From assembly GCA_037443035.1 (NCBI GenBank), contig JBBIPC010000007.1, positions 72,876 to 136,875 of the forward strand: a stretch of DNA of 64,000 bases. The letters run 5' to 3'. Each line of letters starts with the position of its first letter. Position 1 is the first letter of the stretch. The notes beneath the pieces were generated by a model, which saw only the letters and a program-made list of their open reading frames with translations, did no database searches and was not told the DNA's origin. The position numbers were made by a program, and so were the translations under genes. Below, piece by piece: positions 4,276-63,370 of this stretch. The stretch is from Chthonomonadales bacterium (GTDB lineage Bacteria; Armatimonadota; Chthonomonadetes; Chthonomonadales; CAJBBX01).

Positions 4276-4818
4276 TCAGAGTGTCTGCATCTTGCGATAG
4301 ACGACCAGGGGCGGTTCTCCCTCCAGGTCCTCCGGATGGTAGCGCGGGAAGGGATACTCGAGTTGGCGCACTTCGACGGGAGACACCTTGGGGTCAACTA
4401 GTCCAAGGGCCACAGCGACGCCGTAGATGATGGCCTCCGGGCGCGGTGGACATCCCGGTATGTAGAAGTCCACCGGCACCACCTTCTCCACGGGTCCCAG
4501 CACGTTGTAGGTGTCGAACCAGACCCCGCCTCCGCATGCACATGAACCGATGGCGAAGACGAGCTTGGGCGCGGGCATGGCCTCGTACGCTCGGCGTAAG
4601 GCCTTGCTCGTGGATCTCATGGCCGGTCCTTGGCAGAGCATGACATCCGCATGGCGCGGCGATGCCACGAGCCGTATCCCGAAGCGCTCCGCATCGTAGT
4701 AGGGCGTCAAGACGTCGAGGACCTCGATATCGCAGCCGTTGCAACCGCCGCTGTTCGCATGGTAGACCCAGAGGGACCGCCCGAACAGTTTCTTGCAGAG
4801 CCCCGCCAGTACGCTCAT
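4276..4818 (-). CDS. Group-4 [NiFe]-hydrogenase small subunit (NuoB/HycG-like)
   Basis: ORF 4276..4992. The conserved part starts at the ATG at 4818 (MSVLAGLCKK), 9 nt after the upstream TGA. Motifs: GGCNGCDIE, GSCACGGG, IPGCPPRPE (proximal 4Fe-4S ligands of the NuoB/HycG family). Confidence 0.85.
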   Translation of the reverse strand: MSVLAGLCKKLFGRSLWVYHANSGGCNGCDIEVLDVLTPYYDAERFGIRLVASPRHADVMLCQGPAMRSTSKALRRAYEAMPAPKLVFAIGSCACGGGVWFDTYNVLGPVEKVVPVDFYIPGCPPRPEAIIYGVAVALGLVDPKVSPVEVRQLEYPFPRYHPEDLEGEPPLVVYRKMQTL

Positions 4819-12247: not shown

Positions 12248-14271
12248 GGGCGAATCCTCTCGATCCGCACAGGCACATACGGGGACCCGTTCGCTGCATG
12301 GCCCCGGATGGCCTGATCCACGTTCTTGACGAAGAAGGGAGCGAACACTGCACCCCGTCGCACCTCGTCCGTCACACGAGCCGCGATCTCCACACAACCT
12401 CCCGCCGAGCAGACACGAATAGTTTCGCCGTCCCGCACCGACAGTTCTCGCGCGTCCTCCGTGTTCACCTCCACGAACCCCTCGGGATAGTCGAGCAGGA
12501 GGATGCGGTACTCACGCTTCAGCGTCTCGCTGTGCTGGATCAGCACGTTCTTGTGCCAGTAGTAGTTGGAATAGCCGAACACCAGGGTCAGCGGGAACTC
12601 GGCGCTGCGTGGCACAGGGACGGGAGGCCGCACAGGCTGCAGACGGAATGGATGTTGCTCGCCAGAACCGTCTGCGAACAGCCTGGGCGTTCCGACGGGC
12701 CGCTGCCAGGTGCACGGCCATTGCACCCCGAAGTCCCTCCGGAGATTGTCGTAGCTGGCCGCTTCGTAGAACGGAACAGCTTGGCCGATCTCTGCCATGA
12801 CATCCGCCGGACCATCGTATTCCCACTCTGCGCCGAGGGCGCGTGCCACTCGGACAATGTGCCTCCAGGCTGGCTCCGTCGCACCAGGCGCCGCTGCAAC
12901 CTTCTCTGCAACCTGGATGCGCCGGTCCGTGCTGGTGAAGGTGACGGTCTCCTCACCGAAGGCAGTGGTGGGCAGGATGACGTCAGCGAAGGCGGCTGTT
13001 TCCGTCATGAACAGGTGCTGGACCACGATGAACTCGCATTGCTGGAGAGCCCAGGCCGCGTCGCCGAAGAAGGCCGTGCTGGCGGGATCGTAACGACCCA
13101 GCCACAGTCCCCGAATCGCACCGTTGCCCAGACCGCCCAGTACTTCGCGCGCCGACAGCCCGACCTCCCGCGGAAGCTCCGCCTGCCATAGACTGCCCAG
13201 CCGGGCCGACGCCTCTTCATCGGTGACGCGCCTATAGCCCGGCAGCATGTCGGGCAGCATGCCCATGTCGCAGACGCCTTGGAGGTTGTTATGTTCGGTC
13301 AGCGCATAGACACCCGCGCCTGGACGGCCGATCTGCCCGGTCAGCAGAGCGAGGTTGACAGCGGCCCGAATGGTTTCCTCGTGGCGCGCCTCCAATCCCG
13401 TCGAATAGACCAGGGAGGCTGCCTGCGCCTCGGCGTACAGCGTAGCCGCTTCCTCCAGCGCTTCTGGCGGTACGCCACATTCCTCGGCAGCCGTCAATAA
13501 GTCGAAGTGCTCGGTGGCGGAGAGGAATGCGTCGAACCCACCGCACCGGCTCTTCAGGAAGCTGCGGTCCTCCAGCCCACGGTCGATAATGACCCTGGCC
13601 ATGGCACCGTACAGCGTGGCTTCCGTCCCAGGGCGGATCTGGAGGAAAACGTCGGCGTGGCCCGCCAGACGATGCCGGCGAGAATCCACCACAATGAGTC
13701 GTGCACCGTCCAGCTTGGCGCGTAGGACAATGCCTGCCACCGTCGGCAACTGCCGCGCCAGGTCCACCCCGTCCACGAGAATCACGTCGCTCAGACTCAA
13801 GTCGCCAATCGGGTTCGTCGTGGCTGGTACGCCGAGCATGTCCAGGAGCACGTTGATGGAGTTGTGGACATACACTCCGGTCCCGTGGTCCACATTGTTG
13901 GTGCCCACCACGGCGCGCGCCAGCTTCTGGAGCAGATATGCTTCCTCGTTGGAACATCGGGGCGAGTCGAGGAATGCCACCGCCTGCGGACCATGCTGCA
14001 TCACGATCGCTCGAAGCCGCTCGGCGATCAGCTCCACCGCCTCGTCCCACGTCGCTTCCTCGAAGCCCCTCGAACGCCGGATGAGAGGGTGGAGCAACCT
14101 GTCGGGCGAACCGGAGACCTCGTGAACATGCCAGCCACGCAGGCAGATCCTTCCCCGGTTCGTGGGATGGGACAAGCTGGGATAGGCACCGCTTACGCGC
14201 CCTTCGGCGGTCTCGAGATACAGACCGCATCCCACCCCGCAGAAGGTGCATGTGGTAAGTTGGTGCGGCAT
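12244..14271 (-). CDS. FdhF-like molybdopterin-oxidoreductase-family subunit (formate dehydrogenase H homolog) with non-canonical active-site residues
   Basis: 675 aa. The N-terminal 4Fe-4S motif is CTFCGVGCGLY...ICLRG. Collinear with E. coli FdhF as recalled (ARAVVGTNNVD..., NNLQGVCDMGMLP, FIVVQHLFMTETAAFADVILP). The Sec/Cys-His and Arg positions are replaced; see findings. Confidence 0.8.
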   Translation of the reverse strand: MPHQLTTCTFCGVGCGLYLETAEGRVSGAYPSLSHPTNRGRICLRGWHVHEVSGSPDRLLHPLIRRSRGFEEATWDEAVELIAERLRAIVMQHGPQAVAFLDSPRCSNEEAYLLQKLARAVVGTNNVDHGTGVYVHNSINVLLDMLGVPATTNPIGDLSLSDVILVDGVDLARQLPTVAGIVLRAKLDGARLIVVDSRRHRLAGHADVFLQIRPGTEATLYGAMARVIIDRGLEDRSFLKSRCGGFDAFLSATEHFDLLTAAEECGVPPEALEEAATLYAEAQAASLVYSTGLEARHEETIRAAVNLALLTGQIGRPGAGVYALTEHNNLQGVCDMGMLPDMLPGYRRVTDEEASARLGSLWQAELPREVGLSAREVLGGLGNGAIRGLWLGRYDPASTAFFGDAAWALQQCEFIVVQHLFMTETAAFADVILPTTAFGEETVTFTSTDRRIQVAEKVAAAPGATEPAWRHIVRVARALGAEWEYDGPADVMAEIGQAVPFYEAASYDNLRRDFGVQWPCTWQRPVGTPRLFADGSGEQHPFRLQPVRPPVPVPRSAEFPLTLVFGYSNYYWHKNVLIQHSETLKREYRILLLDYPEGFVEVNTEDARELSVRDGETIRVCSAGGCVEIAARVTDEVRRGAVFAPFFVKNVDQAIRGHAANGSPYVPVRIERIRP

Positions 14272-14307: not shown

Positions 14308-14793
14308 CTACCAGGAGCGCACGTGCCGCTCGACAAGCTTCTGACGGACCGCCTGGAGCCGTTGCTCCAACAGTGTCGCGAACCGCTGCAGGAGCATGTA
14401 GCCTAGGCTTGGGTCCTTCTCGCACCGCTCCCGCAGAGCAGGACCGTCGAGGACCAATAGGCGTGTCCTGCGCGCCGCCCGAGCGTCCAGACGCCAACGG
14501 TACGGCGGCACGAGCACCGACCAACCGAAGGCATCGCCATCCTCTAGTTCCTGCACGGTCGTGGGCCCGTACTGCAGGTTGAAAGCCTCCAGTACAACTG
14601 CGCCTTCGAGGATCAGGTAGAACCTGTCCGCCTGCTCCCCCTCCCGAAAGATCACTTGACCTGCGTCCAGCGTCGTTTCGGTCGACAGCGACAATAGCGC
14701 CTGAGCACAGTCCGCTGGCAGATCGGCGAATAGCGGGTGGCCAGCCAGGACTTCGCCAGAAGACCGCGTCGCAGGTGTGTGTTGCACTGCCAT
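14308..14793 (-). CDS. Stand-alone cyclic-nucleotide-binding (cNMP) domain protein, no HTH
   Basis: ORF 14308..14865. The ATG at 14793 is preceded by AGGAGG (14806-14801). Contains the CAP/cNMP beta-roll pattern HPLFADLP...GQVIFREGEQADRFYLILEGAV...GDAFGW. At about 161 aa it ends in a helix with no DNA-binding domain. Confidence 0.75.
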   Translation of the reverse strand: MAVQHTPATRSSGEVLAGHPLFADLPADCAQALLSLSTETTLDAGQVIFREGEQADRFYLILEGAVVLEAFNLQYGPTTVQELEDGDAFGWSVLVPPYRWRLDARAARRTRLLVLDGPALRERCEKDPSLGYMLLQRFATLLEQRLQAVRQKLVERHVRSW

Positions 14794-15026: not shown

Positions 15027-15872
15027 CTACACGGCTGATGGCTTGGCAAGATGCTGACGTGTGGCAGCGCGGGACCCCTCTTCGCGGGTCGTCCACCACT
15101 CCTCGTCCTGCACGGACCGCACAATGATGTCCCGTACTGCCTCGGGTGAGTCGCTAACCGCCATCAGGTCCATGTCGTGCGGCGAGATCTTTCCCTCGGC
15201 TGCCAGAGTGGCGCGCATCCAGTCCAGCATGCCCTGCCAGTAAGCCGAGCTGAAGAGCACGACGGGGAAGTTGCGTATCTTGCCTGTCTGAATAAGCACC
15301 AGCGCCTCCAGCAGCTCATCGAGCGTGCCGAAGCCTCCGGGGAAGATGACGAACGCACAGGCGTACTTCACGAACATCATCTTCCGCACGAAGAAGTAGC
15401 GGAACTCCACTGCCGTGTCGGTGTAGGGATTCAGGTGCTGCTCGAACGGCAGCTCGATATTCAGACCGACCGATCGCGCGCCGGCAAGGTGGGCTCCTTT
15501 GTTTCCAGCCTCCATGATGCCCGGGCCGCCTCCCGTGATGATGCTGAAGCCTGCCTCCCCCAACAGCCTGGCGGTCTCGACTGCCGCGCCGTACATGGGA
15601 TCCGTCTCGCTTACCCTTGCGCTGCCAAAGATCGTCACGGCCATGCCGAGATCCGCTAGCGCGTCGAAGCCGGCGACGAACTCCCCCATGATGCGCAGGA
15701 CCCGCCAGGGGTCCGATTGCGTGAACAGCTCCGGAGTATGGCGCCGGACATTGATGAGCCGCTCATCCTCGGTGACGCTGGTAGTACGGGGACGACGGGT
15801 GACAGGCGGGCGAATGGCAGCCGAATGGTTCGCGCCGGAGATGACGTGCTTTTCAGACACGGGCTTCCTCAC
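15027..15872 (-). CDS. LOG-family (TIGR00730) Rossmann-fold nucleotide-binding protein
   Basis: Motifs: TIFGSARV, ITGGGPGIMEAGNKGA, PGGFGTLDELLEAL. The GTG start forms a GTGA overlap with the upstream stop at 15869-15872. Confidence 0.8.
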   Translation of the reverse strand: MRKPVSEKHVISGANHSAAIRPPVTRRPRTTSVTEDERLINVRRHTPELFTQSDPWRVLRIMGEFVAGFDALADLGMAVTIFGSARVSETDPMYGAAVETARLLGEAGFSIITGGGPGIMEAGNKGAHLAGARSVGLNIELPFEQHLNPYTDTAVEFRYFFVRKMMFVKYACAFVIFPGGFGTLDELLEALVLIQTGKIRNFPVVLFSSAYWQGMLDWMRATLAAEGKISPHDMDLMAVSDSPEAVRDIIVRSVQDEEWWTTREEGSRAATRQHLAKPSAV

Positions 15873-17806
15873 GGTTCCGGAAAGCGTCCGGAGAGTGTGC
15901 GATCGAAGAGATATACATCCAGTACTGCTTCGATCCTAGGCTCCCGTTCCCACGCGGTTCTGGACGCCTGCTGCCAGAACGCATAGGCGGCCGCTCGGTC
16001 GCCCTTCTCGCGTGCATCGTATGCGCGCGCCAGCGGCTCGACGATGGCAGCATGGTGCAGCAGGTACCGCCACGAGGCTGACCACACAGGTTGCGCATCG
16101 GCAGCGTGGCGTTCCATCACTGGCCGAAAGCTCTGGATGACTTCCGGCACGCGCCCGAAGGCCGGCCCACGATCGCACCGGACGTTCACCGACTCTGCGG
16201 TCTTCTCTCGGTCCCCGCGGAGGTAAGGAGGATCGAACATCTCGGAAAGCTCGTAGAGATAGCCTCGTACAGCTCGCCAATCGGGACCGAAAGCTGCCTG
16301 GAAGTACTCTTCCTCGATTGCGCCAAAGGAGCGACCAGGATCCCAGAGGCCAGCAGCCATGGCATACATGCCTAGCCCCGTTGGCAAGAATGCGCGTTGG
16401 GTCTGGCAACTCATGAAACCGTTCAGTCCGATGGCGGCCAGTCTTCGAACGTCTTCGTGCAGAATTGAAGCGATACTGCAGTAGCCCGGATCGTTGTAGT
16501 GGTCCCACATGAAGTGGTAGTCGAAATCGAAGCCGTCCCCCTTGAAAGCGCGCTCCCAGGCTCGCAGAAACGCTACATTGGCGGTCACGGAACGGGGGAA
16601 CTGGAGCCGATTGCGCTCGAATGGGGGCAGATCCGGCAGGTGCTCCATATCCGCCTCGAACGGCCGACTGTAGGAACGCGTGATGGGCGCGAACATGAGC
16701 ACGAAACGTTCCGGGTGGGCGATCACCTCTCGTTCCGGAGGCCAGAGGAGGTCCACGTAGATGAGGAAGACGATTTTCGTGTCGAGCCCCTGCCTGGTGA
16801 GTGCAGCGTCGAGCTCGTTCAGTAGCATCACGTAGAAGTCCGACGGCCTCGCCTGCACGCAGTTCTCGCACTCGCAGTTGTTGTTGGCGCCATCCGCCAG
16901 CCAGACGTGCAAGAGATCTACCGCCGGATGCTCCTGCACATACCGCACCATGTCCTCGACCATGATGCGCCGAACCTCGGGGTTGGAGTAGCAGAGGTTC
17001 GTGTTGAGTGGTATGCCCTCCCAGACATCTCGTTTCCCATTCACCATGGCAAGATAGGGCACGGCTTCGGGAGGCGCCTGGACGGGTTCGAACTCCCATC
17101 CCAGACCTGCCATACCGAATGGTTCGCATGTCCAGCCATGCCCAACCGCGTGATACAGAAGGTCACGCCGCTCGATCTCGGCGACGATACGCTCGAGGAT
17201 GCCCCTCGCTTGCTCGATCGAGAACGGTTCCGCCTCTCGGTAAGGATTGTACTGATGGGAGTACCACCGGTTGAAGAACGTGAAACTCTCCCGGAACTGG
17301 GTGAAATAGGCGTTCATCCCGACGCGTGGGAGCCACTCCACGATGCCCCGCACATGTTCTTCGCTGACAGCGCCTTCGATGCAGATTCCCCTGTGACGGT
17401 AAGCCGGCTTCTCCCTGAGCTGGCAGCTCAGTTCCGGCAGGTGGTCGGGCACGTACTCGCCGTCGCTACCAGGACGGACCCAACGACAGCCCAGCTCCCT
17501 CAAGAATCGATAGACTGCCAGAAGCACGCTGCGCGGGTTCGTACCGGTGAGCACACCGGTCCCCTGCTGAACGCTCACGAAGATCGCATCGTCCAAGCGC
17601 CGGTCCGGGACGGGAGGAAGATCCACCGCGGGCAGATCTCCGGCCGACGCCACCCATAGCCCTGGCACGTCGGCATCGTACGTCTCGGCTGAGATGCTGG
17701 GGACCGGTGCACCACACATAGCTCCGAGACAGCGTGACAGCTCCTCGGCGGCGTACTGCACTGTTGGATGGGACCCGATGGTCCTGACAATAGGGGCTTC
17801 TGGCAT
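15869..17806 (-). CDS. DUF4838-like (GH20-like fold) hypothetical glycan-active protein
   Basis: ORF 15869..17968. The ATG at 17806 (MPEAPIVRTIG...) lies 30 nt past the lepA stop. Family assignment is by recollection of the DUF4838 N-terminal pattern (low certainty). The CDS itself is well supported by its length. Confidence 0.6.
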   Translation of the reverse strand: MPEAPIVRTIGSHPTVQYAAEELSRCLGAMCGAPVPSISAETYDADVPGLWVASAGDLPAVDLPPVPDRRLDDAIFVSVQQGTGVLTGTNPRSVLLAVYRFLRELGCRWVRPGSDGEYVPDHLPELSCQLREKPAYRHRGICIEGAVSEEHVRGIVEWLPRVGMNAYFTQFRESFTFFNRWYSHQYNPYREAEPFSIEQARGILERIVAEIERRDLLYHAVGHGWTCEPFGMAGLGWEFEPVQAPPEAVPYLAMVNGKRDVWEGIPLNTNLCYSNPEVRRIMVEDMVRYVQEHPAVDLLHVWLADGANNNCECENCVQARPSDFYVMLLNELDAALTRQGLDTKIVFLIYVDLLWPPEREVIAHPERFVLMFAPITRSYSRPFEADMEHLPDLPPFERNRLQFPRSVTANVAFLRAWERAFKGDGFDFDYHFMWDHYNDPGYCSIASILHEDVRRLAAIGLNGFMSCQTQRAFLPTGLGMYAMAAGLWDPGRSFGAIEEEYFQAAFGPDWRAVRGYLYELSEMFDPPYLRGDREKTAESVNVRCDRGPAFGRVPEVIQSFRPVMERHAADAQPVWSASWRYLLHHAAIVEPLARAYDAREKGDRAAAYAFWQQASRTAWEREPRIEAVLDVYLFDRTLSGRFPEP

Positions 17807-17835
17807 GTGTATCACCTCTCTCTTCCGGCGCGACG

Positions 17836-19695
17836 CTAGCCGATTCGCAGAACGCTGAGAAACGCTTCCTGTGGTATCTCCACGCTGCCGATCTGCTTCA
17901 TCCGCTTTTTCCCTTCCTTCTGCTTCTCGAGCAGCTTCCGCTTTCTCGTGATGTCGCCGCCATAGCACTTGGCGGTTACGTTCTTCCGAAATGGTCGCAC
18001 CGACTCGGCGGCGATGATCTTGCCACCTATGGCCGCCTGTATACGTACTTCGAACTGCTGGCGCGGCACGACCTCCTTCATTTTCTCCACGAGGGCCCTC
18101 GCACGCTGATACGCCTTGTCGCGATGAGTGATCAGCGACAGCGCATCCACCATCTCGCCGTTCACCAACACGTCCAGCTTGATGAGCTTTCCTTCGCGGT
18201 AGCCTATCGGTTCATAGTCGAAGGATGCGTAGCCCCGCGTACGGCTCTTGAGCTGATCATAGAAATCCAACAGAATCTCCGCCAACGGGAGCCTGTAGTG
18301 CAGCAGCACCCTGTCGCGGTACTGCTCGGCCTCGTTGGCGGGTGGACCGGTAGCAGTGCCCACTCTGGCGTGGGTGATATGCTCCATGCGCACGAACTCG
18401 CCACGTCTCTCCCTGGCCAGCTCCATGATGGCCCCAACGAATGCCGACGGTACGAAGATCGTCGCGTCCACGTACGGCTCTTCGATGGAATGAATGCGGG
18501 CAGGGTCCGGAAATCGAGCCGGATTGTCCACTTCCACAGTCGTGCCATCGGTAAGGTGAACCCGAAACACCACCGACGGCGATGTGGCGATGAGCCGAAG
18601 ACCGAACTCCCGTTCGAGTCGTTCTTGGATGATCTCCATGTGGAGTAGGCCCAGGAATCCACACCGGTAGCCGAATCCTAGGGCGGCGGATGTTTCCGGT
18701 TCGAAGGAAAGGGCCGCATCGTTGAGTTGGAGCTTCTCCAGAGCCTCTCGAAGGTCAGGGTAGTCCTTGCTGTCTATCGGATAGAGGCCGCAGAACACCA
18801 TGGGTTTGGCCTTCCGATAGCCAGGCAGCGGCTGCGACGCGGGATGCTGGGCTGTCGTGATCGTGTCTCCGACGTTCGCATCGCCGATGGTCTTGATCCC
18901 GGCAGTGAGAAAGCCCACTTCTCCCGTGCGGAGGACTTCCGTCTGCTCCATGCGCGGTCTGAAGATCCCGACGGTACTGACTTCGAAATCCCGCCCGGTG
19001 GACATGAAACGGATGCGCATGCCGGGCTTAACGTAGCCGTCTACCACACGGATGTAGCACACGACGCCGAGATAGCTGTCGAAGTGGCTATCGAAAACAA
19101 GCGCCCGTAGCGGGCCTGTGGGATCGCCCGATGGCGGCGGTATTCTCTGGACGACCTGCTCGAGGACCTCTCGGGTGCCGATGCCCTGCTTGGCACTGGC
19201 AAGCACGGCATCGTGAGCCTCGACGGCAAGGATATTCTCGATATCCTCACGCACTCGCTCTGGATCGGCCGCCGGCAGGTCCACCTTGTTGATGACAGGA
19301 ATGATGGTCAACCCATTGTTGTAGGCAAGGTTGACATTGGCAACGGTCTGAGCTTCGACGCCCTGAGCTGCATCCACCACCAGCACGGCTCCCTCGCAAG
19401 CCGCCAGCGATCGGGACACTTCGTAGGTGAAGTCCACGTGGCCAGGGGTGTCAATGAGGTTCAGCTCGTACTCCTGACCATCCAGCGCCGTGTAGTTGAG
19501 TCGTACGGCCGTCATCTTGATCGTGATGCCACGCTCCCGCTCGATGTCCATGGTATCCAGGAGCTGGTCCTGCATCTCCCGCTCGTCGATGGCGCCCGTC
19601 AGTTCGAGGATACGGTCGGCGAGCGTGGACTTGCCATGGTCCACGTGGGCAATGATGCAGAAGTTCCGTATATGGGACTGCGAACGGGCTTCCAT
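17836..19695 (-). CDS. lepA: Elongation factor 4 (LepA)
   Basis: ORF 17836..19839 with an internal ATG at 19695. Contains [30 protein letters not shown] (G1), DTPGHVDF (G3), and the LepA-specific C-terminus ...[21 protein letters not shown]. Confidence 0.95.
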
Positions 19696-20787: not shown

Positions 20788-22716
20788 CTAAGGCCAGAAA
20801 TCGTAGGCCCTGATTCCCAGAGCGATGCCGTACAGCGACCAGAAGCATCCGACGAGCATCTCGCCCAGGATCATACCGAGGAAGAACGGCACTGCGGTTC
20901 GATAAAGCCGGAGGCCGCCGTATCGCATGGTGACGGCCTTGAGTATGCATCCGATCGTCACAGGTAACCAGATCTGCGCCATGCCCCATGAGTTCGCCAC
21001 AGCGTAGCCCAGAGGGTGGAAGGGAAACCACGCGAACCGTACCCGCATGGCAGCCATACCCAATGACAGCACGAACGAGATGCCGGCGGCTATGAGACTG
21101 CCGTAGTTGGCAGTCCCGGGGGTCAGGAACCACTCGTGCAGCCGTCCGAAGTTCTCTCCAGGGAACTCACGCGGCCACCTCTCGACCCTTGCGGTACCGG
21201 CACCCAGCTCGTAGGCTCGGCTGAGGTATGCCCAGAAGACGCCAACTCCTCCCACACAGGCGGCCAGCATGATACCCCTTACAACGGCCTTCTGACTCGC
21301 ACCGGTGGCATCTGCTAGTTTCATGCCTTCGAGAGCGTGCGGAGCAGGGTTGGCGAAGTAGGTCCTGTTGAACCAATAGGTCAGCGCGAAGCCCACGAGA
21401 TTGCGAGGACCCAATCGCGTAGGCCCCACCGAAGCCAGGAGGGGATTCAGCGGCCCCATGAAATGCATGTCATGGATAGGGAACCCGAACTCGGCGCGGA
21501 TCCTCGTGATGACCACAACCAGCACAAAGTAGAGCGCGAAGAATGCCACGGCTACCCATGCGGACATGCCCATGGCCACGCAGAACGCGCTGAGCGCCGC
21601 CACGCCCAGAATCATGCCTATCAGAGCATGCCGGTAGCGTATGGGCTCGTCCGCATCGCTCGCCGTTGACGCGCCGCTGACGGCTTGCTTGAGGATATCT
21701 GCAAGATCGCGCCTGGCCGCCCACAGCGCTGTGGCAGCCACCGCCATGTAGGCCCCGAACGCTTGGCCGTGCTCGTAAGGTGGGTAGTTGTTGAAGCCAG
21801 CCCCACTCGTGAAGCTCTGCTCGATGCCCAGGGCTGTCACAGCCACAAGCTCCAGCTTGTAGAGAACATAGAAGACCGACAACGAGAACGAGAGATCCAA
21901 GGGCATGATGAAGGCCAAACCAATGGCGAAGAAATAGAAGGAGATCTTGACGTTGCCCATACCCTTCCACGGCATGGCCGTGATGTAGGGGTCAATGTCC
22001 TGGCGCTTGATCGGGATCATGGGCACAACTGGCCAGAAGTACGCGATGCCGTTGAGCAGCGTCACACCACCCGCCAGCGCGAACCCGGCCCACAGCACGC
22101 GGCTCCGCCAGAACACGGATCCGGTCGTCATCTCCAGCGGCAGGTATACCGATGGATAGGTCAGTCTCTCGGCTACCATCCAACGGCGCCTCAAGAACGT
22201 GTTCACGCAGAGCATGGTGTAGATCAACACAACGATGAAACCGGACCACAGCAAGACGGGCACCAGCCAGGGCATCCAGTTCTCGGCTAGATACAGCGAG
22301 CTGTTGCCGGAGTAGAAGCGGCGGACGGCTCCCGGGTCATCCACCATGAACCGTCGGGGCAAGTACGGCATGAACGTCGTCTGCCACCTGTTGCCGATAC
22401 CAGCGTAGGCGAATGGAAATGGGAGAAAAGAAACGAGGAGCTGGCCCATCTGCTGGGCGCCAAGGGCCGAACCGATGCACATCATCGTGAAGACGCAGAG
22501 CAGTTCTGCCCGTGTCAGGGTCAAGCATCTCGTGGCTTGCCAACGGCTGCAAAGGCCGTTGACTCCTATCAGCGCCGCCAGGAGCGCGATCGTATTGCAG
22601 AAAGGAACGGCGTTGGTAAACAGCGACCAGCGTACGAGTTCGGCCTCGATGAGCCAACGCTGATTCAGAAGGACCAGAAGCACACCGATAACATACGTGC
22701 GTGCGCGTATGGACAA
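20788..22716 (-). CDS. Large polytopic membrane protein of unknown function (DUF6785/DUF6784-like by recollection)
   Basis: 642-aa ORF with a TTG start in the track and more than 12 hydrophobic segments. No catalytic motif recognised. Confidence 0.6.
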   Translation of the reverse strand: MSIRARTYVIGVLLVLLNQRWLIEAELVRWSLFTNAVPFCNTIALLAALIGVNGLCSRWQATRCLTLTRAELLCVFTMMCIGSALGAQQMGQLLVSFLPFPFAYAGIGNRWQTTFMPYLPRRFMVDDPGAVRRFYSGNSSLYLAENWMPWLVPVLLWSGFIVVLIYTMLCVNTFLRRRWMVAERLTYPSVYLPLEMTTGSVFWRSRVLWAGFALAGGVTLLNGIAYFWPVVPMIPIKRQDIDPYITAMPWKGMGNVKISFYFFAIGLAFIMPLDLSFSLSVFYVLYKLELVAVTALGIEQSFTSGAGFNNYPPYEHGQAFGAYMAVAATALWAARRDLADILKQAVSGASTASDADEPIRYRHALIGMILGVAALSAFCVAMGMSAWVAVAFFALYFVLVVVITRIRAEFGFPIHDMHFMGPLNPLLASVGPTRLGPRNLVGFALTYWFNRTYFANPAPHALEGMKLADATGASQKAVVRGIMLAACVGGVGVFWAYLSRAYELGAGTARVERWPREFPGENFGRLHEWFLTPGTANYGSLIAAGISFVLSLGMAAMRVRFAWFPFHPLGYAVANSWGMAQIWLPVTIGCILKAVTMRYGGLRLYRTAVPFFLGMILGEMLVGCFWSLYGIALGIRAYDFWP

Positions 22717-28980: not shown

Positions 28981-30771
28981 CTAGGGAGTGATGCCTGCCG
29001 AGACCACACCTTCCGAACCCGACGGATCGGGAAGGATGGACGGTGTCACGAACACCAGCAGCTCGCTGTCCGACACACGGTATTCGCGCGACTGGAAGAG
29101 CTGCCCAATCAACGGCAGGTCTCCGAAGAGCGGGACTTTCTTGATGCTTGTACCGTCGTTCTTCCGCACCAGACCCGCGATGGCGATGGAGTCGCCGTTG
29201 CGCACACGACGCGTGATGGGCCCTATGTACTGGTAGCTGATGATCGGGGCCGTGGTGCCATCGGGGCCGGTAACCTGGCCGGAGACGTCCGAAACGTAAG
29301 GCGAGATCGTCAGGGAGATGGTGTCATCGCCGTTGATTCTCGCCAGCACATCCATACCAGACTGAGCCTGGACGGTGGAGATATTCGTCTGCAAGATAAC
29401 CACACCGTTGCCGCCCGCTGTTGGACTGGTGTAGAAGATCGGTATCTCCCGGCCGACGTTGAGGCTCACTGGCAGGTTGTTCAGCGTGGTCACCATGGGC
29501 GAGCTGACGAGACGGCCCTTGCCCTCGGTCAGTGTAGCCCGGAGCTGGGCGGCCACGTTGCCTGTAGCGTAGTTCATGAACACTTGGCCTGCTGCGAAGC
29601 CGGGGTTGCCTGCGACCAGGTTGCCTCGTGCAATCTGCCAGTCAATGCCGAACTGCTTAAGGTCGTCCTGGGTCACTTCGACGAACTCTGCCTTGATCAT
29701 GAGCTGCTTGGGAGCGATATCGAGGAGCCGGATGATCTCTTTCAGCTCGCGCAGCGCGTCTTCATCGCTGGTTCGGACGATGATCGTGTTGTCTATGTCA
29801 TAGGCGAGCATGGACTGAATCCCCTCCGGCACCAGTCCACCACCGCCGCCGCCAATACCGCCCTGGCCGCCGAAGCCACCCTGGCCGCCGAAGCCCCCAT
29901 AGCCTCCACGGCCGCCGAACTGACCGCCTCCGCAACCGCCATAGCCGCCGCCATAGCCGCCGTAGCCGCCATAGCCGCCGCCATAGCCGCCATAGCCGCC
30001 GCCGATACCGCCACCGCCCGGCCGCATGCCACCACCGAACTGGTTGGCCTCAGCGTCGTTCCCGCCAGGCTTGGGCCCGCTCGGCACTACCGACGGAAGC
30101 GGCGTCTCTCCCGTGCCCTGGCTGCTCTGCGGTGCTGGCGGATTGACCTGAACGCCACCGTTCGTGGGTTGGCCTATGTTGCGGCCACTCGCGTAGGGCG
30201 TGCGCCGCTCGCCAAGGGATTCGAACATCAGTTGCCGTAGGTAGTCGCCTCTACCACTCAGTTCGGGTCGCGTCAGGAACGCCACGATCTCCGAGGGCCG
30301 GGAATTCTGAACGCGGATCCGCTCGGTGATCAGCCGCTTGGGCGGCTCGGGAACCAGAGGCGCCTGGCTCTGGCTCGTCGCTGCCGGCTTGTCCACCTTC
30401 GGTGTCTCGGCTGCCGCGTCAGCCCCCTTAGGACCGATGATGTAGATACCGCCGTCCACCCGCAACGAAGCTCCGGCTGCGCGGCAGATCATCTGCAACA
30501 CTGTCTCGAGCGGCTTCTTCTCGAGCATCAGGTTGACCCGCCCGTAGGGCTTGTCACTAGCTTCGATGACAATCTCCGCACCTGTCTGCGCCATGAGCAT
30601 TCTCACGGCAGCCTGGAGATCGGCGTCGACAAGGTCCACACGTTGCACGATCATCTGGCCTGCGCCGCTCTCCTGAGCGCGTGCGGTCACGGATGCCGCG
30701 CCGGATATGGCGAAGGCTAACGTCGCCGCTAGCGCCCACCTCCAGCTAGCTGAACGACTTCGAAGGCCCAT
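28981..30771 (-). CDS. pilQ: Type IV pilus secretin PilQ with a Gly/Tyr/Phe-rich insertion
   Basis: ORF 28981..30825. The ATG at 30771 is preceded by GGAGGAGG with an 8-nt spacer, and a signal peptide follows (WRWALAATLAFAISGAASVTARA). N0-like domain: VDLVDADLQAAVRMLMAQTG.... C-terminal secretin domain: LVSSPMVTTLNNLPV...KKVPLFGDLPLIGQLFQS...ELLVFVTPSI. Confidence 0.9.
   Translation of the reverse strand: MGLRSRSASWRWALAATLAFAISGAASVTARAQESGAGQMIVQRVDLVDADLQAAVRMLMAQTGAEIVIEASDKPYGRVNLMLEKKPLETVLQMICRAAGASLRVDGGIYIIGPKGADAAAETPKVDKPAATSQSQAPLVPEPPKRLITERIRVQNSRPSEIVAFLTRPELSGRGDYLRQLMFESLGERRTPYASGRNIGQPTNGGVQVNPPAPQSSQGTGETPLPSVVPSGPKPGGNDAEANQFGGGMRPGGGGIGGGYGGYGGGYGGYGGYGGGYGGCGGGQFGGRGGYGGFGGQGGFGGQGGIGGGGGGLVPEGIQSMLAYDIDNTIIVRTSDEDALRELKEIIRLLDIAPKQLMIKAEFVEVTQDDLKQFGIDWQIARGNLVAGNPGFAAGQVFMNYATGNVAAQLRATLTEGKGRLVSSPMVTTLNNLPVSLNVGREIPIFYTSPTAGGNGVVILQTNISTVQAQSGMDVLARINGDDTISLTISPYVSDVSGQVTGPDGTTAPIISYQYIGPITRRVRNGDSIAIAGLVRKNDGTSIKKVPLFGDLPLIGQLFQSREYRVSDSELLVFVTPSILPDPSGSEGVVSAGITP
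29836..30040 (-). repeat. Imperfect GGY/GGF codon repeat tract encoding the PilQ low-complexity insertion
   Basis: Encodes GGGMRPGGGGIGGGYGGYGGGYGGYGGYGGGYGGCGGGQFGGRGGYGGFGGQGGFGGQGGIGGGGGG. The plus strand is runs of gccgcc/atagcc/gaagcc. Confidence 0.85.
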
Positions 30772-30856
30772 ATGTTCGTCCTCCTCCCGACCCTTTGCTA
30801 TCTTGCATCTCGACGCGACAAGCAACTCCAGCCTTCAGAACATGCTCGCCGCGGAC

Positions 30857-34472: not shown

Positions 34473-35747
34473 TTACTTCTTCCCGCGCTTGGCCGGTTTG
34501 GCCTTAGCAGGTGTCGGTACGGCCACCATGTCGCGTGCAGCCAGGCCCGTGGCCACGGCGAAGATCGGTGACAGCTCGCGGATGTGGTCGGCAGAGTAAC
34601 TGCGCGCCGCCACGCTCGCATATTTGAAAGCATCCGCCACTAGCGTGGGAATGCCCAGTTCGATGCTCAGGAACTGATCGAGGTTCTTCAGACCTGCGGT
34701 TCCCCCGCAGAGGAGGATTTCGTCCACGTGACCGTCGGCGGTTCGCCCTGTGTAGTACTCGATGGAACGGCGGAACTCGGCCACCAGCTCACCCAGTGTC
34801 GGTGCGATAGCCATGAAAACCTGCTGGGTCGTGGGATCGGCTGTGGACGCCGCCACTGGCATCGTCTCTGTAGGCTGCGCAGTCTCGCCCAGGTCGAAGT
34901 CGGTGGCGCCAGTGCTAACCCCGGCGGTGGGCTGTTCGGCTGACAGATCGTAGAAACCCTCCCCCACGGTCGGCGCTTGTACTGCGGGTGCTTCCGTCAG
35001 GATGACCTCGCCGTGCCGCCGTTTCAGTTCTTCCGCCTGTTCCTCGTCGACTCCGAGGTGCTGTGCGATGGCTGCCGTCATCGTATCTCCTGCGAGCGGG
35101 AGCGTGCGCGGGAACGCCAGGATGCCATCGCGGAAGATACCGATATCCGTCGTGGCTGCGCCGATGTTGATGATGGCCACGGTCTTCCTGCCGTAAGGAT
35201 CTGGCCCCAGCTCGATGAGGCATCTGGCTGCCGCCAGCGGCTCCACATCGATGGCAGCCGGGCTAAGACCTGCGGCGAACAGCATATTCACATGACGATC
35301 CACCATCTCCTGTTGGGCGACCGCCATGAGGACTTCCATGTTCTCTGCGTCGGCGTCCGCATCGGCACGAATAACCGGCTGGAAGTCCATGATGACTTCA
35401 TCGGCGGCGAAAGGAACATGCCTCTCCACTTCCCATTTCATGGCCTCTGCCAGCTCGGAGTCCGACATCTTCGGCACTTCGATCACGCGTACAACGAGTG
35501 CGCCCTGACCAGCCACGGAGCTCACTGTCCGCTTCGTGGAGATGCCAGCTTCCTTGAGCATCTTCTTGACGGCATCCCCGAGCGTCTTCGGATCTACGAT
35601 CACGCCGCTGTCCATGACCTCCGGTGGTGTCGGCGCCATGCCCATGGCCTTTACCGTGACGCCATTGCGACCCGGCACGAGCTCCACGGCCTTCATGAAC
35701 TTCGAGCCGATATCTAGTCCGACCGTCGGTCCTCCCGAACCGCCCAT
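34473..35747 (-). CDS. pilM: PilM actin-like T4P assembly ATPase-fold protein
   Basis: ORF 34473..35804; the ATG at 35747 follows GGGGGG. Motifs: VGLDIGSKFMKAVEL and LCGGTAGLKNLDQFLS. Contains a roughly 60-aa low-complexity insert and a Lys-rich C-terminus. Confidence 0.88.
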   Translation of the reverse strand: MGGSGGPTVGLDIGSKFMKAVELVPGRNGVTVKAMGMAPTPPEVMDSGVIVDPKTLGDAVKKMLKEAGISTKRTVSSVAGQGALVVRVIEVPKMSDSELAEAMKWEVERHVPFAADEVIMDFQPVIRADADADAENMEVLMAVAQQEMVDRHVNMLFAAGLSPAAIDVEPLAAARCLIELGPDPYGRKTVAIINIGAATTDIGIFRDGILAFPRTLPLAGDTMTAAIAQHLGVDEEQAEELKRRHGEVILTEAPAVQAPTVGEGFYDLSAEQPTAGVSTGATDFDLGETAQPTETMPVAASTADPTTQQVFMAIAPTLGELVAEFRRSIEYYTGRTADGHVDEILLCGGTAGLKNLDQFLSIELGIPTLVADAFKYASVAARSYSADHIRELSPIFAVATGLAARDMVAVPTPAKAKPAKRGKK

Positions 35748-35817
35748 ACTGGGACCCCCCGATTGAATCGTAAGACGACACAGGCACCTGCCCGCACGGG
35801 GCAAGCTCGCCCGCTAG

Positions 35818-36009: not shown

Positions 36010-39000
36010 TCACGGATACGTCTGCGGATAGAACGAAGGACTCACCGTCATATAGTAAAGGTCTGTTGTACCCGACCGGGTGCTTGCCCAGAACACCCAC
36101 ACACGGTCAACGAATGGATCTTTCACTGCCGTGACCTGCCCTTCGTTCACGGCCGCGTCGGTAGGCAACGAGGCTTCGCCCGTCGTCTGATCCCCGGGTG
36201 TTGCTGCAACCGTCAGCTCGTCGCCCCAGCTTACCCTGTAATCAGCCTCTACAGCGCCACCGCCGCTCAGCGCCTGCACAACATGGATCGTGGCGCCCTC
36301 GTCAATCTCCGTGAAATACAACCGGCCTCGCAGCCAATCGATCTCCACCGGTCCGCGGTTGCCGCTGACTTGGATGTTGGATCCGATGGTCCCGTCCGCG
36401 TTGCGCACGACGGGCCGCGGTAGGCGAACCATGAGCCGCATGGTCTTGAAGTAGAGACCGCCGGAACTGGCGACATTGCTGCCTGTCTTCCGGTAGATGA
36501 GCCACAGGCGGGAGACCGTCGTCGGCCGTACGCTCTGCGCCCCGGGTCGGACTGCGTCGGGCTGGGTGATCCTTCGCGGATTGTCCGAGAGATCCAGGAG
36601 CGCCACTGCGCCCGTGTTGGCGCCAGGCGCCTGAACTGCGGGCTGGGGCGCGAATCCAGCATCGGACTGCCAGCCCGCCGGAACGCTAATGACGCCTGTA
36701 TCGGACCTCGTTACGTTCAGGCGAATCGTCTGCGGCGTATACGACACCGTCACCGCGTCGTTGATCTTGGGAGCTACATCCGGGAACGTGATCGTACCCG
36801 ACTGCGGATCCACCACCACGCGGCCTCCTAGCGTCGAGTTGAAGTAGAGCTTGCCAGTGGGCGCATCGAAGACCGGTGCGCCGACATTCACCCGCGTACC
36901 ATTGACCCGAATGACAATCCACGGACTGTTGCCAGTACCATCCACGAACGCTCCCGTGTTGGGATCCCGGTAGATCCACGCAACGTCCCGAGCGATCCAG
37001 GACTGGGACGCTCCGTACCGAGCTACGAGCTCGTTCTCCACCCGCGGGAACGGAGTCACTGCTTGCTGCGCCTGGCCAACTGCCAGCCGCTGTAGCTCGT
37101 ACCGTGTCATGAACGTTTCCGGCTGACCCCGATCGGCAAAGGCAGCGGTATAGACCACGTCCACGTGGGTTATCGTGCTGGCTGCACGCTGATCCGGATG
37201 GAGACGACGCGGAACGGGAATGGGATTCGAAAGCCCCTGCAGGCCACCCGGTGTGGGCAGCGCGATATCGGCCGACCATCCCGAGGCATTGCGCATACCG
37301 TCCGGATTCCGGTTGGGATCGTAGGCATTGACGTTGTAGTACAAGCGCGTCCTGCCCGAAGTGCCGCCGTACCAGAATACGAAGCCGGTACCGCCGACGA
37401 CGAGCGGCCTTACTCCCTGTTTCTGAAGGGTCGGGTCGTTGGGGAAGGAATAGGGTATGCCACCAGGAGCCGAGCTCAGATCTGGCGCGTATACGCCGTT
37501 GCCGGACCTGGCAATGGGCACGTAGAACGTCCTGGCGTCCAACGAAGCGCCACCGGCACCACCAGCGGTCTTGTTCACGGCTCCTTGCCAGAACAGCCAC
37601 AAGTCCGGACTCCGTCCGGTTGGAGACTGGTCCAGAACGAGGGACGGCGCACCATGCACCACCATGGGTTGGCCAAGCTGGTTGACGGGTATCACGCCTG
37701 GTACGACCTGCGTCCGTGCACCAGCCACGACATCCGACGACTGAGATGGGAACAGAGCCTGGGTTGCACCCAATGGCGGGAACGGAGTTGCCAGGCCTGT
37801 GGGGCTCCACCATCGTGCTGGCGTGCCGACAGCTACCTCGAACCGCCAACCGAAGAGGAGCGGCGCAGAGCTGCCCCAGCCGCCAGCAGGGTCGAACGCC
37901 GACGCGGCCCCATTCAACTGTGCGTAGAAGATGCCCCATGGAACATCCTGCATGGTGGGGCCGGCAGCGAAGTTCTCCGGTCGGTTACTGGTCCACGCCA
38001 GCAAGATGGCCGTAGACGGCGCGTTCCCCGAGCCTGTGGTGTGGAAGACCACCGACGGCATGAGGTTCGCCCCGAAGGCTGCTCCCGAGGGGTTCTGAGC
38101 CGTCGGAGCTCTCAGGTCCACCTGCGGCAAGGTGCCGTCCTGCTGCATGTACGGCCCGGTGGGCCATGGCCGCACGGCCGGCGCATTCGTCAGACGCGCC
38201 TCCGTGACCTGGATCTTCAGTCGGAACGGGTTCTGCACCATCGACTCGACAGGCGCACTGACTGAACTCTGGCGGTCATTGGGATCCACATACGACCGGA
38301 AGTCGGGCACACCGTTATCATCTATTGCAGCAGCAAGCGGGTTGTCGGCGGCATTGTAGATGGACAGCCATGCCCGCCACTGAGCCGGGTAGTTATCCTC
38401 GAAGACATAGACAGGCGCCGAGTAGGTCCCAGCAGGGGTACCGAGCGGTGGCGCAATGCCGATTCTTGGTCGTACATCCACGCCGATGCGCCGGAGCTCT
38501 GGCAGCAACCCGAAGGGATCACCATGGGCGACGTCCGGAATGGACAGCACGGTGGGCCCACTGTCGCCCGGCAACGGCTTGTGCAGTGTTGGCCGCACGT
38601 TGAGACCCACCCCCCAGCCAAGTGGGTTGCCGGGACGAACGTAGGGGTTCCCAGGCACGAGGTCGGGTCGCAGTTTGCTGAAACCCGGCACCATGCGAAG
38701 GTCGAAGGGCCAGAACAAGAACGGCTCGATGGGGAGACCCGCGCTGTTGTCATGGTCCAGCGACGAGATGATGCCATAGTTGCTGCCTGGCGTGAGATCC
38801 ACGTTGAACGGCATGGGCAGGGACTTGCCCAGTAGCGGAGAGTTCAGTTGCCATGCCAGCGGCATGTCGAACGGATGCCCAGGCGCAGTACCGGTGACCA
38901 GCCTCCCCTGGCCGTCGTAGACCGGCAGGAAGGGGCTTACCTGGTCGCTCTGCAGGCGTGCCCATGAGCCAGGATAGGCCCATGCGTCCGGCGAATCACC

Positions 39001-49516: not shown

Positions 49517-49542
49517 CGCCACCGGCCGTTCTGTGCGCACCG

Positions 49543-57556: not shown

Positions 57557-57702
57557 GTCCCTTTCACCCCCGTGCGGCCCTTCGGGCGCCGCATGGCCGT
57601 TTGTCCTGTGCCCTTTTCGGAGCACAGTCTCTTCGATTCTTCGGTACGACGACGTTCAGCCGTCCTATGTTCCCGCGCGCCAGCGCTCGGCGTCGCTCGA
57701 CG

Positions 57703-63272: not shown

Positions 63273-63348
63273 TGTGATCCACCTGACCTCTTTCGATCGC
63301 GCGCCGGCGCATCCGATATCCTCAGGCGCTCTACGGAGTGCGAATCTC

Positions 63349-63370
63349 CCGTGTCCCAACGAGGACACGG
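63349..63370 (-). other. 5'-UTR hairpin of pilB
   Basis: CCGTGTCC (63349-63356) and GGACACGG (63363-63370) form a perfect 8-bp stem with a 6-nt loop. It starts within about 10 nt of the predicted transcription start site. Confidence 0.45.

Follow-up and report, generated by a model that had tools for sequence, protein, structure and literature searches.

An FdhF-like subunit without the catalytic residues of formate dehydrogenases in the operon of a putative NAD(P)H-linked, membrane-bound [NiFe]-hydrogenase from Chthonomonadales

In the formate hydrogenlyase (FHL) of Escherichia coli, HycB is the ferredoxin that links the formate dehydrogenase (FDH) FdhF to HycF. Another arrangement, in which an Fdh homologue devoid of cysteine or selenocysteine (Sec) stands beside homologues of the beta and gamma subunits of sulfhydrogenase I (SHI), has already been mentioned in passing in print (2019, 2026). 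Within a 'Group 4b' subclade, roughly every second Fdh subunit has no Cys or Sec for molybdenum (Mo) coordination, and the clusters with such subunits also carry SHI-gamma and SHI-beta homologues (PMC13582414, Front Microbiol 2026). AlphaFold3 models of these complexes contain an iron-sulphur (Fe-S) network with three termini, namely the large subunit, SHI-gamma and the Fdh-like protein, and this led to the proposal of electron bifurcation or confurcation with an unidentified substrate (PMC13582414). A group 4 region of Saganbacteria encodes a molybdopterin oxidoreductase not identifiable as an FDH, together with asrA, asrB and cooF (Matheus Carnevali et al. 2019, Nat Commun, PMC6349859). Here we describe an operon of this general kind in a 64,000-nucleotide stretch of a Chthonomonadales bacterium (assembly GCA_037443035.1, contig JBBIPC010000007.1, positions 72,876 to 136,875 of the forward strand; hereafter the window). 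It runs on the minus strand from position 14271 to 4276, and its first structural gene encodes an FdhF-like protein of the MopB family.

The favoured interpretation is that this FdhF-like protein has lost formate-dehydrogenase chemistry. Because homologues of SHI-beta and SHI-gamma take the place of HycB, the hydrogenase most likely exchanges electrons with NAD(P)H/NAD(P)+ and not with formate. We give a probability of about 0.6 to the reading, drawn from sequence comparison, that the operon encodes a membrane-bound [NiFe]-hydrogenase which is linked to NAD(P)H and may translocate ions, and in which the FdhF-like protein is a structural or Fe-S accessory subunit. Clusters of this type that are annotated 'formate hydrogenlyase' probably do not use formate. 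New here are the exact pattern of substitutions with its invariant Tyr, the absence of the relay Lys and of further conserved segments, and the failure of the protein to reach the cutoff of a curated FDH model. Also new are the nine-gene synteny over at least eight phyla, the variation between subclades and a canonical FdhA as the likely ancestor. No experimental work on any member of the family was found in the open-access literature.

The FdhF-like gene has an ATG start, no internal stop codon and no in-frame TGA, and its product carries the Pfam domains Molybdop_Fe4S4, Molybdopterin and Molydop_binding. All its best sequence matches in the PDB are FDHs, with E values from 5.6e-122 to 1e-99, while NuoG reaches merely 8.6e-13. 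The top match is the FdhF of the hydrogen-dependent CO2 reductase (7qv7_S, 5.6e-122), and others are 9t1s_L, 7bkb_D, ForCE1/YjgC and the FDHs of Methylorubrum extorquens and Rhodobacter capsulatus. E. coli FdhH (1aa6) is matched at E = 1.3e-99 across residues 4-645. An AlphaFold2 model (mean predicted local distance difference test score 77.9, predicted template modelling (TM) score 0.82) superposes on FdhH with a Foldseek TM score of 0.83 and 30% identity (1fdi, 1aa6, 7z0t_A), so the whole four-domain fold is predicted to be retained. Other FDHs and NapA superpose equally well. The loops modelled with low confidence include the former cofactor loops (131-133, 326-333, 442-455 and 567-578), and confidence is just as low in the Fe-S loops, which certainly hold a cofactor. 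A preliminary description of this DNA had reported that the N-terminal 4Fe-4S cysteines and the overall collinearity with FdhF are retained. Both statements hold, given the model fold and the presence of all four Cys in 121 of 121 aligned family members.

The catalytic residues have fared differently. HMMER alignments to seven solved FDHs were read residue by residue; they include 7qv7_S, 7bkb_D, the F420-dependent FDH 9t1s_L (in which Sec is printed as X), Bacillus subtilis ForCE1/YjgC (8rqz_C, 9gzq_A) and M. extorquens FDH1 (7vw6_A). In these seven alignments Tyr134 lies opposite the Sec/Cys ligand in a gap-free stretch, and Val135 lies opposite the His that follows the ligand (Gln in YjgC). 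Neither the ligand column nor the adjoining positions of the window protein hold a Cys, Sec, Ser or Asp, and Ser138 corresponds to the usual conserved Ser/Thr of 'C-H-x-P-[ST]'. Thr325-Glu326-His327 stands opposite Arg-Gly-Gln, again gap-free, in three full-length PDB alignments, so that the Arg column holds no Arg either. In what we take to be the residue numbers of E. coli FdhH, the equivalents are Sec140, His141 and Arg333 and, near the cluster, Lys44. Positions 13858-13902 of the minus strand translate to TNNVDHGTGVYVHNS, and 13276-13305 to ALTEHNNLQG. The preliminary description had given the first peptide correctly, with a range (13858-13899) that starts one codon late, at N125; its remark that the loop has no Cys and no in-frame TGA, with Tyr and Val at the aligned positions, agrees with the solved structures. 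Its reading of the second motif and of the Thr codon at 13297-13299 was exact, by translation and by the PDB alignments. Recoding to Sec was considered as well and rejected: there is no in-frame TGA, and the N-terminal nickel-binding motif of the HycE-like subunit is CxxC in 69 of 69 related loci.

The substitutions extend well beyond the triad. The best 150 representatives of a library clustered at 50% identity were compared, the 70 that carry the canonical Cys-His-Arg triad being set against the rest. Ninety-six columns reach 85% conservation or more among the 70 canonical representatives; the window family keeps 72 of them and changes 24, and the changed columns are not scattered. Those of the relay and the loop are K45R, C130G, R132G, C134Y and H135C/V. 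The G-S-N-x-x-E-x-H-P segment contributes N170D and H175L, the P-x-R-G-Q-N-N-V-Q-G segment P323A, R325T, G326E, Q327H and V330L, with T294E in addition, and the T-G-R motif of domain IV T565F and R567Y/H; G393R, G443V, N447S and D468A are further changes. The Lys after the fourth cluster Cys, which we take to be FdhH Lys44, the electron relay to the pterin, is present in 99% of the canonical representatives and replaced by Arg45 in 100% of the window family, as well as in 65 of 65 genome loci matched by pattern. At the catalytic Arg column the canonical representatives have Arg throughout (100%) and the window family has Thr (98%). In the T-G-R motif, Thr (86%) and Arg (97%) of the canonical representatives give way to Phe (98%) and to His or Tyr. 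Several of the changed segments presumably line or contact the pterin cofactors, and we take the changed positions K45, N170, H175, D419, G443 and R567 to be pterin or phosphate contacts. The NCBIfam model for FDH alpha subunits, TIGR01591, scores the protein at 546.1 bits, below its cutoff of 666.25. The earlier judgement that the subunit is unlikely to be a canonical FDH thus gains, besides the replaced Sec/Cys, His and Arg, the loss of the relay Lys and the failed family model.

The substitutions are a property of a family. A search of 5.8 billion proteins gave 4,275 matches at E <= 1e-20, and the best 120 were aligned with the window protein. These 120 are 61-99% identical to it and nearly all 672-698 residues long; named sources among them are Chthonomonadales, Verrucomicrobiota and Limisphaerales. 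In the resulting alignment of 121 sequences Tyr134 and Glu326 are invariant (121/121 each) and Thr325 is found in 119; Tyr134 is also present in 56 of 56 species-level genome loci matched by pattern. A scan of one genome per species detected relatives in at least 170 genomes, and the 80 best loci served for the operon analysis. They belong to Verrucomicrobiota, Acidobacteriota (Terriglobia), Armatimonadota, Planctomycetota, Nitrospirota, NC10, Omnitrophota and Desulfobacterota (Syntrophobacteraceae, Geobacteraceae), along with one Methylacidiphilum metagenome-assembled genome, and the relatives span at least eight phyla. The chance that the gene is a pseudogene or the product of an assembly or sequencing error is negligible. 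Decay and sequencing error are rejected by the intact 675-codon frame and by the recurrence of the same substitutions in 121 homologues and 170 species genomes, and an identity of 55-74% across phyla and a conserved gene order likewise speak against a pseudogene.

Position 135, next to the former ligand, behaves otherwise. It is Cys in 92 of the 121 homologues (76%), and Gly (12), Ser (9), Val (5) or Thr (2) in others; in 56 matched genome loci Cys accounts for 34 (61%). Over both sets the alternatives are Gly, Ser, Ala, Val, Thr, Asn or Arg. A ligand shifted by one residue, to Cys135, was rejected as a candidate, the residue being Val here and Gly, Ser, Ala, Val or Thr in a quarter to a third of relatives. 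Since these proteins do without it, Cys135 cannot be essential; it is a frequent yet dispensable Cys.

Several observations nevertheless weigh against a subunit that has lost its cofactor. All four domains are kept at full length. Across phyla the MopB protein is 55-66% identical, a value as high as that of the beta-like subunit, and the substituted residues are themselves nearly invariant within the family: Gly130, Gly132, Tyr134, Asp170, Glu326, Leu330, Arg393 and Val443 at 100% and Thr325 at 98%. Constraint of this degree could mark a working pocket rather than mere packing. The Cys found at position 135 in most homologues could ligate a metal after a one-residue shift, and TETAAFADVILPTTAFGEE fits what we take to be the PROSITE MopB signature 2. 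These points, together with the retention of E440, R450/R451 and the D-x-x-L-P segment, are what one would cite for an enzyme that carries Mo or tungsten (W) on bis-pyranopterin guanine dinucleotide, or another cofactor, and acts on a third substrate, the complex bifurcating or confurcating electrons among H+/H2, NAD(P)+/NAD(P)H and that substrate. The metal would then lack a protein ligand, as in arsenite oxidase, or be held by Tyr134 or, in most homologues, by Cys135. The published AlphaFold3 Fe-S branch that ends at the Fdh-like subunit is in keeping with such an enzyme (PMC13582414). We hold it to be possible but rather unlikely. Val135 in the window protein, and a residue other than Cys in 29 of the 121 homologues and 22 of the 56 loci with the rest of the operon intact, argue against it, as do the altered positions that we take to be pterin and phosphate contacts. 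We know of no enzyme of the DMSO-reductase family that uses a Tyr ligand. A bolder form of the idea, in which Tyr134, Thr325, Glu326 and His327 make up a new active site holding a redox cofactor (Mo/W-bisPGD with no Cys/Sec ligand, or another) in a three-way, membrane-coupled confurcating or bifurcating enzyme that links H2, NAD(P)H and a third substrate, seems improbable; were it true, a Tyr-ligated or ligand-free metal would be unprecedented in an FDH-type enzyme.

The comparison of sister subclades bears directly on this question. In a neighbour-joining (distance) tree of the 50%-identity representatives, the window family groups with P0128, P0133 and P0238 and with P0124, P0126, P0147, P0225, P0216, P0162, P0233 and P0268, and none of the proteins in this clade has the Cys-His-Arg triad. 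Genomic context, examined for five (P0124, P0128, P0133, P0147, P0162), shows the MopB gene followed by a Fer4_22 gene in all cases, with FNR-like, HycI and antiporter genes next in four (P0128, P0133, P0147, P0162). P0124 lies on a 5.6-kb contig on which the Fer4_22 gene and one further, unscanned gene are visible. HycE-type, NuoH-like and ferredoxin genes are present too in loci L086 and L088, the small subunit being seen in L086; two to three antiporter-like genes occur in L087 and L088, the latter with an Oxidored_q2 (HyfE/NuoK-like) gene in addition. The former active-site loop differs from subclade to subclade: it reads HGTGVY in the window family, DS-EPGHR in P0128 and CTARLGAV in P0126. 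In the alignment made here P0128, P0133 and P0238 have a one-residue gap in this loop. The R-G-Q and T-G-R motifs vary likewise. By contrast, the four cluster Cys are constant wherever the sequence covers them (P0238 is truncated N-terminally). Such variability of the pocket among subclades that share an operon would not be expected of a common third catalytic site, and the unrelated loops, the other residues at the Arg motif and the missing T-G-R motif of the sister subclades thus count against the molybdoenzyme. Because the pocket varies while the cluster Cys never change, a non-catalytic subunit is favoured. The authors of the 2026 study propose a third substrate (PMC13582414), whereas the subclade variation reported here argues for a non-catalytic subunit. 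The preliminary description had left two alternatives, a NuoG-like electron-transfer or scaffold subunit and a molybdoenzyme with a different ligand and substrate; it is the first that we prefer.

A canonical relative may illustrate the ancestral state. Representative P0135 has the motifs HCARTCH and LRGQ and the relay K, and the region concerned is 1251-5879 of contig L083. Downstream of it lies a Fer4_22 (SHI-beta-like) gene. Its upstream side has a gene of FNR type, SHI-gamma-like, and one resembling MobA (Pfam NTP_transf_3), with a Y1 transposase gene between them. No hydrogenase gene is visible near P0135 on this 5.9-kb contig. The MobA-like gene contrasts with the hydrogenase module, beside which no molybdenum cofactor (Moco) gene recurs. 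The P0135 set looks like a three-subunit NAD(P)-linked FDH, of a type that we can match to no characterised enzyme, and suggests that the ancestor was such an FDH. Its alpha subunit, we infer, became non-catalytic at about the time when the trio joined a Hyc-type hydrogenase.

Loss of the triad is not peculiar to this clade: outside the window family, 73 of 143 representatives are without it. A Tyr at the Sec/Cys column occurs in several unrelated branches of the tree (P0127, P0129, P0146, P0152, P0163, P0185, P0196, P0210, P0224, P0236 and P0254), and these Tyr types include 890-residue forms with an N-terminal extension as well as the otherwise canonical-looking P0210 (HCARLYHS). A single G-to-A change turns a Cys codon (TGY) into a Tyr codon (TAY), which in the window is TAT. 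Proteins of the FDH type that lack the ligand seem to be common and little studied.

The genes downstream of the FdhF-like gene (Table 1) supply the remainder of the argument. The GTG start of the beta-like gene overlaps the MopB stop codon, and its product matches the NCBIfam models ShyB, HydB and AsrA, all under cutoff. The gamma-like subunit aligns with 9nez_C, a subunit of Pyrococcus furiosus sulfhydrogenase I, through its GGxGxxP-type dinucleotide-binding motif and its C-x4-C-x2-C...C [2Fe-2S] motif. The HycE-like subunit keeps both nickel-binding motifs, CGICG and DPCFSC, in alignment with subunit 5 of E. coli FHL (7z0s_E). For the HycF-like protein the closest NCBIfam models, below cutoff, are hydrogenase 4 subunit H and the FHL iron-sulphur subunit. 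From the MopB stop codon to the HycG gene consecutive genes overlap by 1-14 nt or are separated by 10 nt at most, which leaves no space for a HycB gene, and none was found in that interval.

The nine genes come in a fixed order: FdhF-like, SHI-beta-like, SHI-gamma-like, HycI, HycC, HycE, HycD, HycF and HycG. When the nine window proteins were used in tblastn against the 80 species-level loci, this order was identical in every locus long enough to show it. The beta-like gene was present in 79 of the 80 and the remaining genes in 63-73, the shortfalls lying at contig ends. Flanking genes are not shared: the commonest neighbour family occurs in 12 of the 80 loci, and among the top families, judged by eye, none resembles a Moco gene. 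The scanned open reading frames (ORFs) of the window include no Moco genes (moa, mob, fdhD) and no hyp genes. With its order constant and its flanks not conserved, the nine-gene set forms a self-contained module that has spread laterally.

It is against this operon that an ordinary FHL with a working FDH has to be judged. FDHs are the best sequence and fold matches of the MopB protein, the hydrogenase part is Hyc-like, and homologues are named 'formate dehydrogenase alpha subunit' in their sources. An acidobacterial 'fdhF, hyf operon' has moreover been read as formate hydrogenlyase, although it is unconfirmed that this is the same type of operon (Hausmann et al. 2018, PMC6018796). With the Sec/Cys ligand, His, Arg and relay Lys all gone, the TIGR01591 score below cutoff and HycB replaced by an NAD(P)H module, an ordinary FHL is very improbable. 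Compared with E. coli FHL-1 (HycBCDEFG; 7Z0S/7Z0T, 1FDO), the window shares the FdhF fold, the N-terminal [4Fe-4S] motif and homologues of HycC, D, E, F, G and I. It differs in having Tyr, Val, Thr and Arg in place of Sec, His, Arg and Lys, and SHI-beta and SHI-gamma homologues where HycB is absent.

In the NAD(P)H-linked hydrogenase that we prefer, electrons would pass between NAD(P)H and the flavin adenine dinucleotide (FAD) of the gamma-like subunit, then to its [2Fe-2S] cluster, to the [4Fe-4S] clusters of the beta-like subunit, to HycF, to HycG and finally to the [NiFe] site of HycE, which exchanges them with H2. Coupling to ion movement would fall to the membrane subunits HycC and HycD. 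The FdhF-like protein would keep its fold and its [4Fe-4S] cluster and serve as a structural or Fe-S accessory subunit, like the MopB-derived C-terminal domain of NuoG. We infer the absence of a Mo/W-pterin, the electron path, the physiological direction and the ion coupling. The enzyme could vent reductant or take up H2. By textbook potentials, H2 formation from NAD(P)H runs uphill under 1 bar of H2, and is roughly neutral or downhill at the few pascals of H2 in anoxic soils.

The likeness to NuoG/Nqo3 is a functional one. The C-terminal, MopB-derived domain of NuoG holds no molybdopterin, and the N-terminal [4Fe-4S] site of MopB type is comparable to cluster N7. In both cases an FDH-type MopB fold without a Mo ligand adjoins an NAD(P)H-oxidising module in the peripheral arm of a machine of the complex I family. 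The window protein, however, lacks the N-terminal [2Fe-2S]/[4Fe-4S] domains of NuoG and starts at the MopB cluster motif, scores 111.8 bits against the NuoG model TIGR01973 (cutoff 470), and is accompanied by an FAD-containing SHI-gamma-like subunit instead of NuoF and NuoE, with flavin mononucleotide. The resemblance would be one of parallel evolution. MopB folds without a Mo ligand are also found in QrcB of the Qrc complex and ActB of alternative complex III, as structural or electron-transfer subunits. These proteins are periplasmic, quinone-linked and distant, and the QrcB model NF041783 gives the window protein 94 bits (cutoff 440). The beta-like and gamma-like subunits resemble those of P. 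furiosus sulfhydrogenase I (group 3b; 9NEZ), with cofactor motifs aligned, while scoring far below the NCBIfam equivalog cutoffs for sulfhydrogenase subunits. In P. furiosus they serve a soluble group 3b alpha/delta dimer, whereas their homologues in the window are attached to a membrane-bound group 4 hydrogenase.

Closest in gene content are the clusters described in 2026, which also combine a Cys/Sec-less Fdh homologue, SHI-beta and SHI-gamma homologues and a membrane-bound group 4 hydrogenase; the phyla listed there for Sec-type large subunits overlap with those found here (Armatimonadota, Acidobacteriota, Methylomirabilota/NC10) (PMC13582414). Antiporter subunits and ferredoxins are each present several times there, alongside a HyfE-like subunit (PMC13582414), whereas the module in the window is minimal, with one antiporter-like subunit and no HyfE. 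The window is likened to these 'Group 4b' clusters by gene content, and the closest solved relative of its HycE is the 4a HycE. The Saganbacteria region has Mrp-like subunits and cooF (PMC6349859), and the window module is without cooF. An identity with 'group 4f / Ehf' was dropped, as the papers concerned describe a different seven-gene complex.

Homologues of the FdhF-like protein are annotated 'formate dehydrogenase alpha', 'F420-dependent FDH alpha' and 'YjgC'. Metabolic models in which formate is converted to H2 by way of this operon are in error if the subunit is unable to oxidise formate, and this concerns Acidobacteriota, Verrucomicrobiota, Armatimonadota and Planctomycetota of peat, soil and groundwater. 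An NAD(P)H-linked membrane hydrogenase is the likelier assignment, which bears on how these bacteria dispose of, or gain, reducing power under anoxia. By analogy, the module looks like a second, independent NuoG-like case, in which an FDH subunit poor in cofactors persisted as a scaffold next to an NAD(P)H-oxidising flavoprotein on a complex-I-type membrane machine; here the flavoprotein module is SHI-gamma/beta instead of NuoF/E. Through the canonical Cys-type FdhA with its beta-like and gamma-like genes, a plausible ancestor and a series of intermediate states come into view.

Table 1. Features of the hydrogenase operon and of the FdhF-like gene (window positions)
Feature	Position	Strand	Basis
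FdhF-like MopB protein, 675 aa	12244..14271	minus	ORF call; Pfam; PDB matches; Foldseek; TIGR01591 below cutoff
N-terminal [4Fe-4S] cysteines C8, C11, C15, C43, all present	14143..14250	minus	121/121 homologues
Arg45 at the conserved-Lys column after the fourth cluster Cys	14137..14139	minus	column comparison with canonical representatives
Former active-site loop H129-G-T-G-V-Y134-V135-H-N-S138	13858..13887	minus	PDB alignments, family conservation
Tyr134 codon (TAT) at the Sec/Cys column	13870-13872	minus	alignments to solved FDHs
Val135 codon at the His column	13867-13869	minus	alignments to solved FDHs
L324-T-E-H-N-N-L-Q-G332 for canonical L-R-G-Q-N-N-V-Q-G	13276..13302	minus	PDB alignments
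Thr325 codon (ACC) at the catalytic Arg column	13297-13299	minus	PDB alignments
F565-G-Y567 for the conserved T-G-R motif, domain IV	12571..12579	minus	canonical-column comparison
SHI-beta homologue (HydB/AsrA-like Fe-S protein), 360 aa	11165..12247	minus	Pfam Fer4_22; PDB 9nez_B 6.9e-39
SHI-gamma homologue (FAD, [2Fe-2S], NAD(P)H-binding), 282 aa	10330..11178	minus	Pfam NAD_binding_1, DHODB_Fe-S_bind; PDB 9nez_C 2.3e-60
HycI-type hydrogenase maturation endopeptidase, 166 aa	9830..10330	minus	Pfam HycI; TIGR00072 97.5 bits > cutoff 47.45
HycC/HyfB-like antiporter-type membrane subunit, 633 aa	7939..9840	minus	Pfam Proton_antipo_M; closest NCBIfam hydrogenase 4 subunit B, below cutoff
HycE-like [NiFe] large subunit with fused NuoC-like domain, 559 aa	6273..7952	minus	PDB 7z0s_E 1.7e-135
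HycD/NuoH-like membrane subunit, 304 aa	5362..6276	minus	Pfam NADHdh
HycF/NuoI-like 2x[4Fe-4S] subunit, 174 aa	4827..5351	minus	Pfam Fer4_7, Fer4
HycG/NuoB-like small subunit, 180 aa, last operon gene	4276..4818	minus	Pfam Oxidored_q6; NF005012 138 bits > cutoff 116
Cyclic-nucleotide-binding-domain protein, 161 aa	14308..14793	minus	Pfam cNMP_binding; ends 36 nt upstream of MopB start

The gene after HycG lies on the opposite strand. At the other end, no DNA-binding domain was detected in the cNMP_binding protein (14308-14793). A homologue directly upstream of the MopB gene is found only in the Chthonomonadales-type loci L022 and L054, with a weaker cNMP_binding match about 4 kb upstream in L058. 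The protein may be a lineage-specific regulator, and its belonging to the module is uncertain.

Some loci depart from the window in detail. The distance between the starts of the HycC and HycE matches is about 3.9 kb in L011, L021, L029, L032, L033, L034 and L040, as against the usual 1.95 kb or so, which points to an additional antiporter-like subunit in some members of the family. HdrA-, HdrB- and HdrC-like genes, identified by eye, immediately precede the module in 7-8 of the 80 loci (for example L003, L021 and L029), and a HypB-like GTPase gene, also identified by eye, is near it in about six, downstream in five of these.

Further upstream of the operon in the window, both on the minus strand, are genes for a LOG-family (Lysine_decarbox/SLOG) protein (15027-15872) and a 699-residue DUF4838 protein (15869-17968). 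A 642-residue protein with DUF6785 and DUF6784 (E = 1e-140; 20788-22716, minus) is encoded further on. None of these three has an apparent tie to the FdhF-like gene. Elsewhere in the window are, among others, aro genes, lepA, a gene for a PASTA kinase and a type IV pilus cluster. The pilus cluster, which also resembles a type II secretion system, encodes a secretin (28981-30825), PilM (34473-35804), N-methyl prepilin-type proteins (52579-54642 and 56642-57625), a prepilin peptidase (57703-58755), PilC (58841-60091), a PilT-like protein (60134-61375) and PilB (61482-63368). Within it sit three long minus-strand ORFs of 2797 (36010-44403), 1688 (44513-49579) and 1007 (49543-52566) codons, which are nearly blank in Pfam, with weak Golvesin_C and DUF4159 matches only, and may encode giant pilus-associated or surface proteins.

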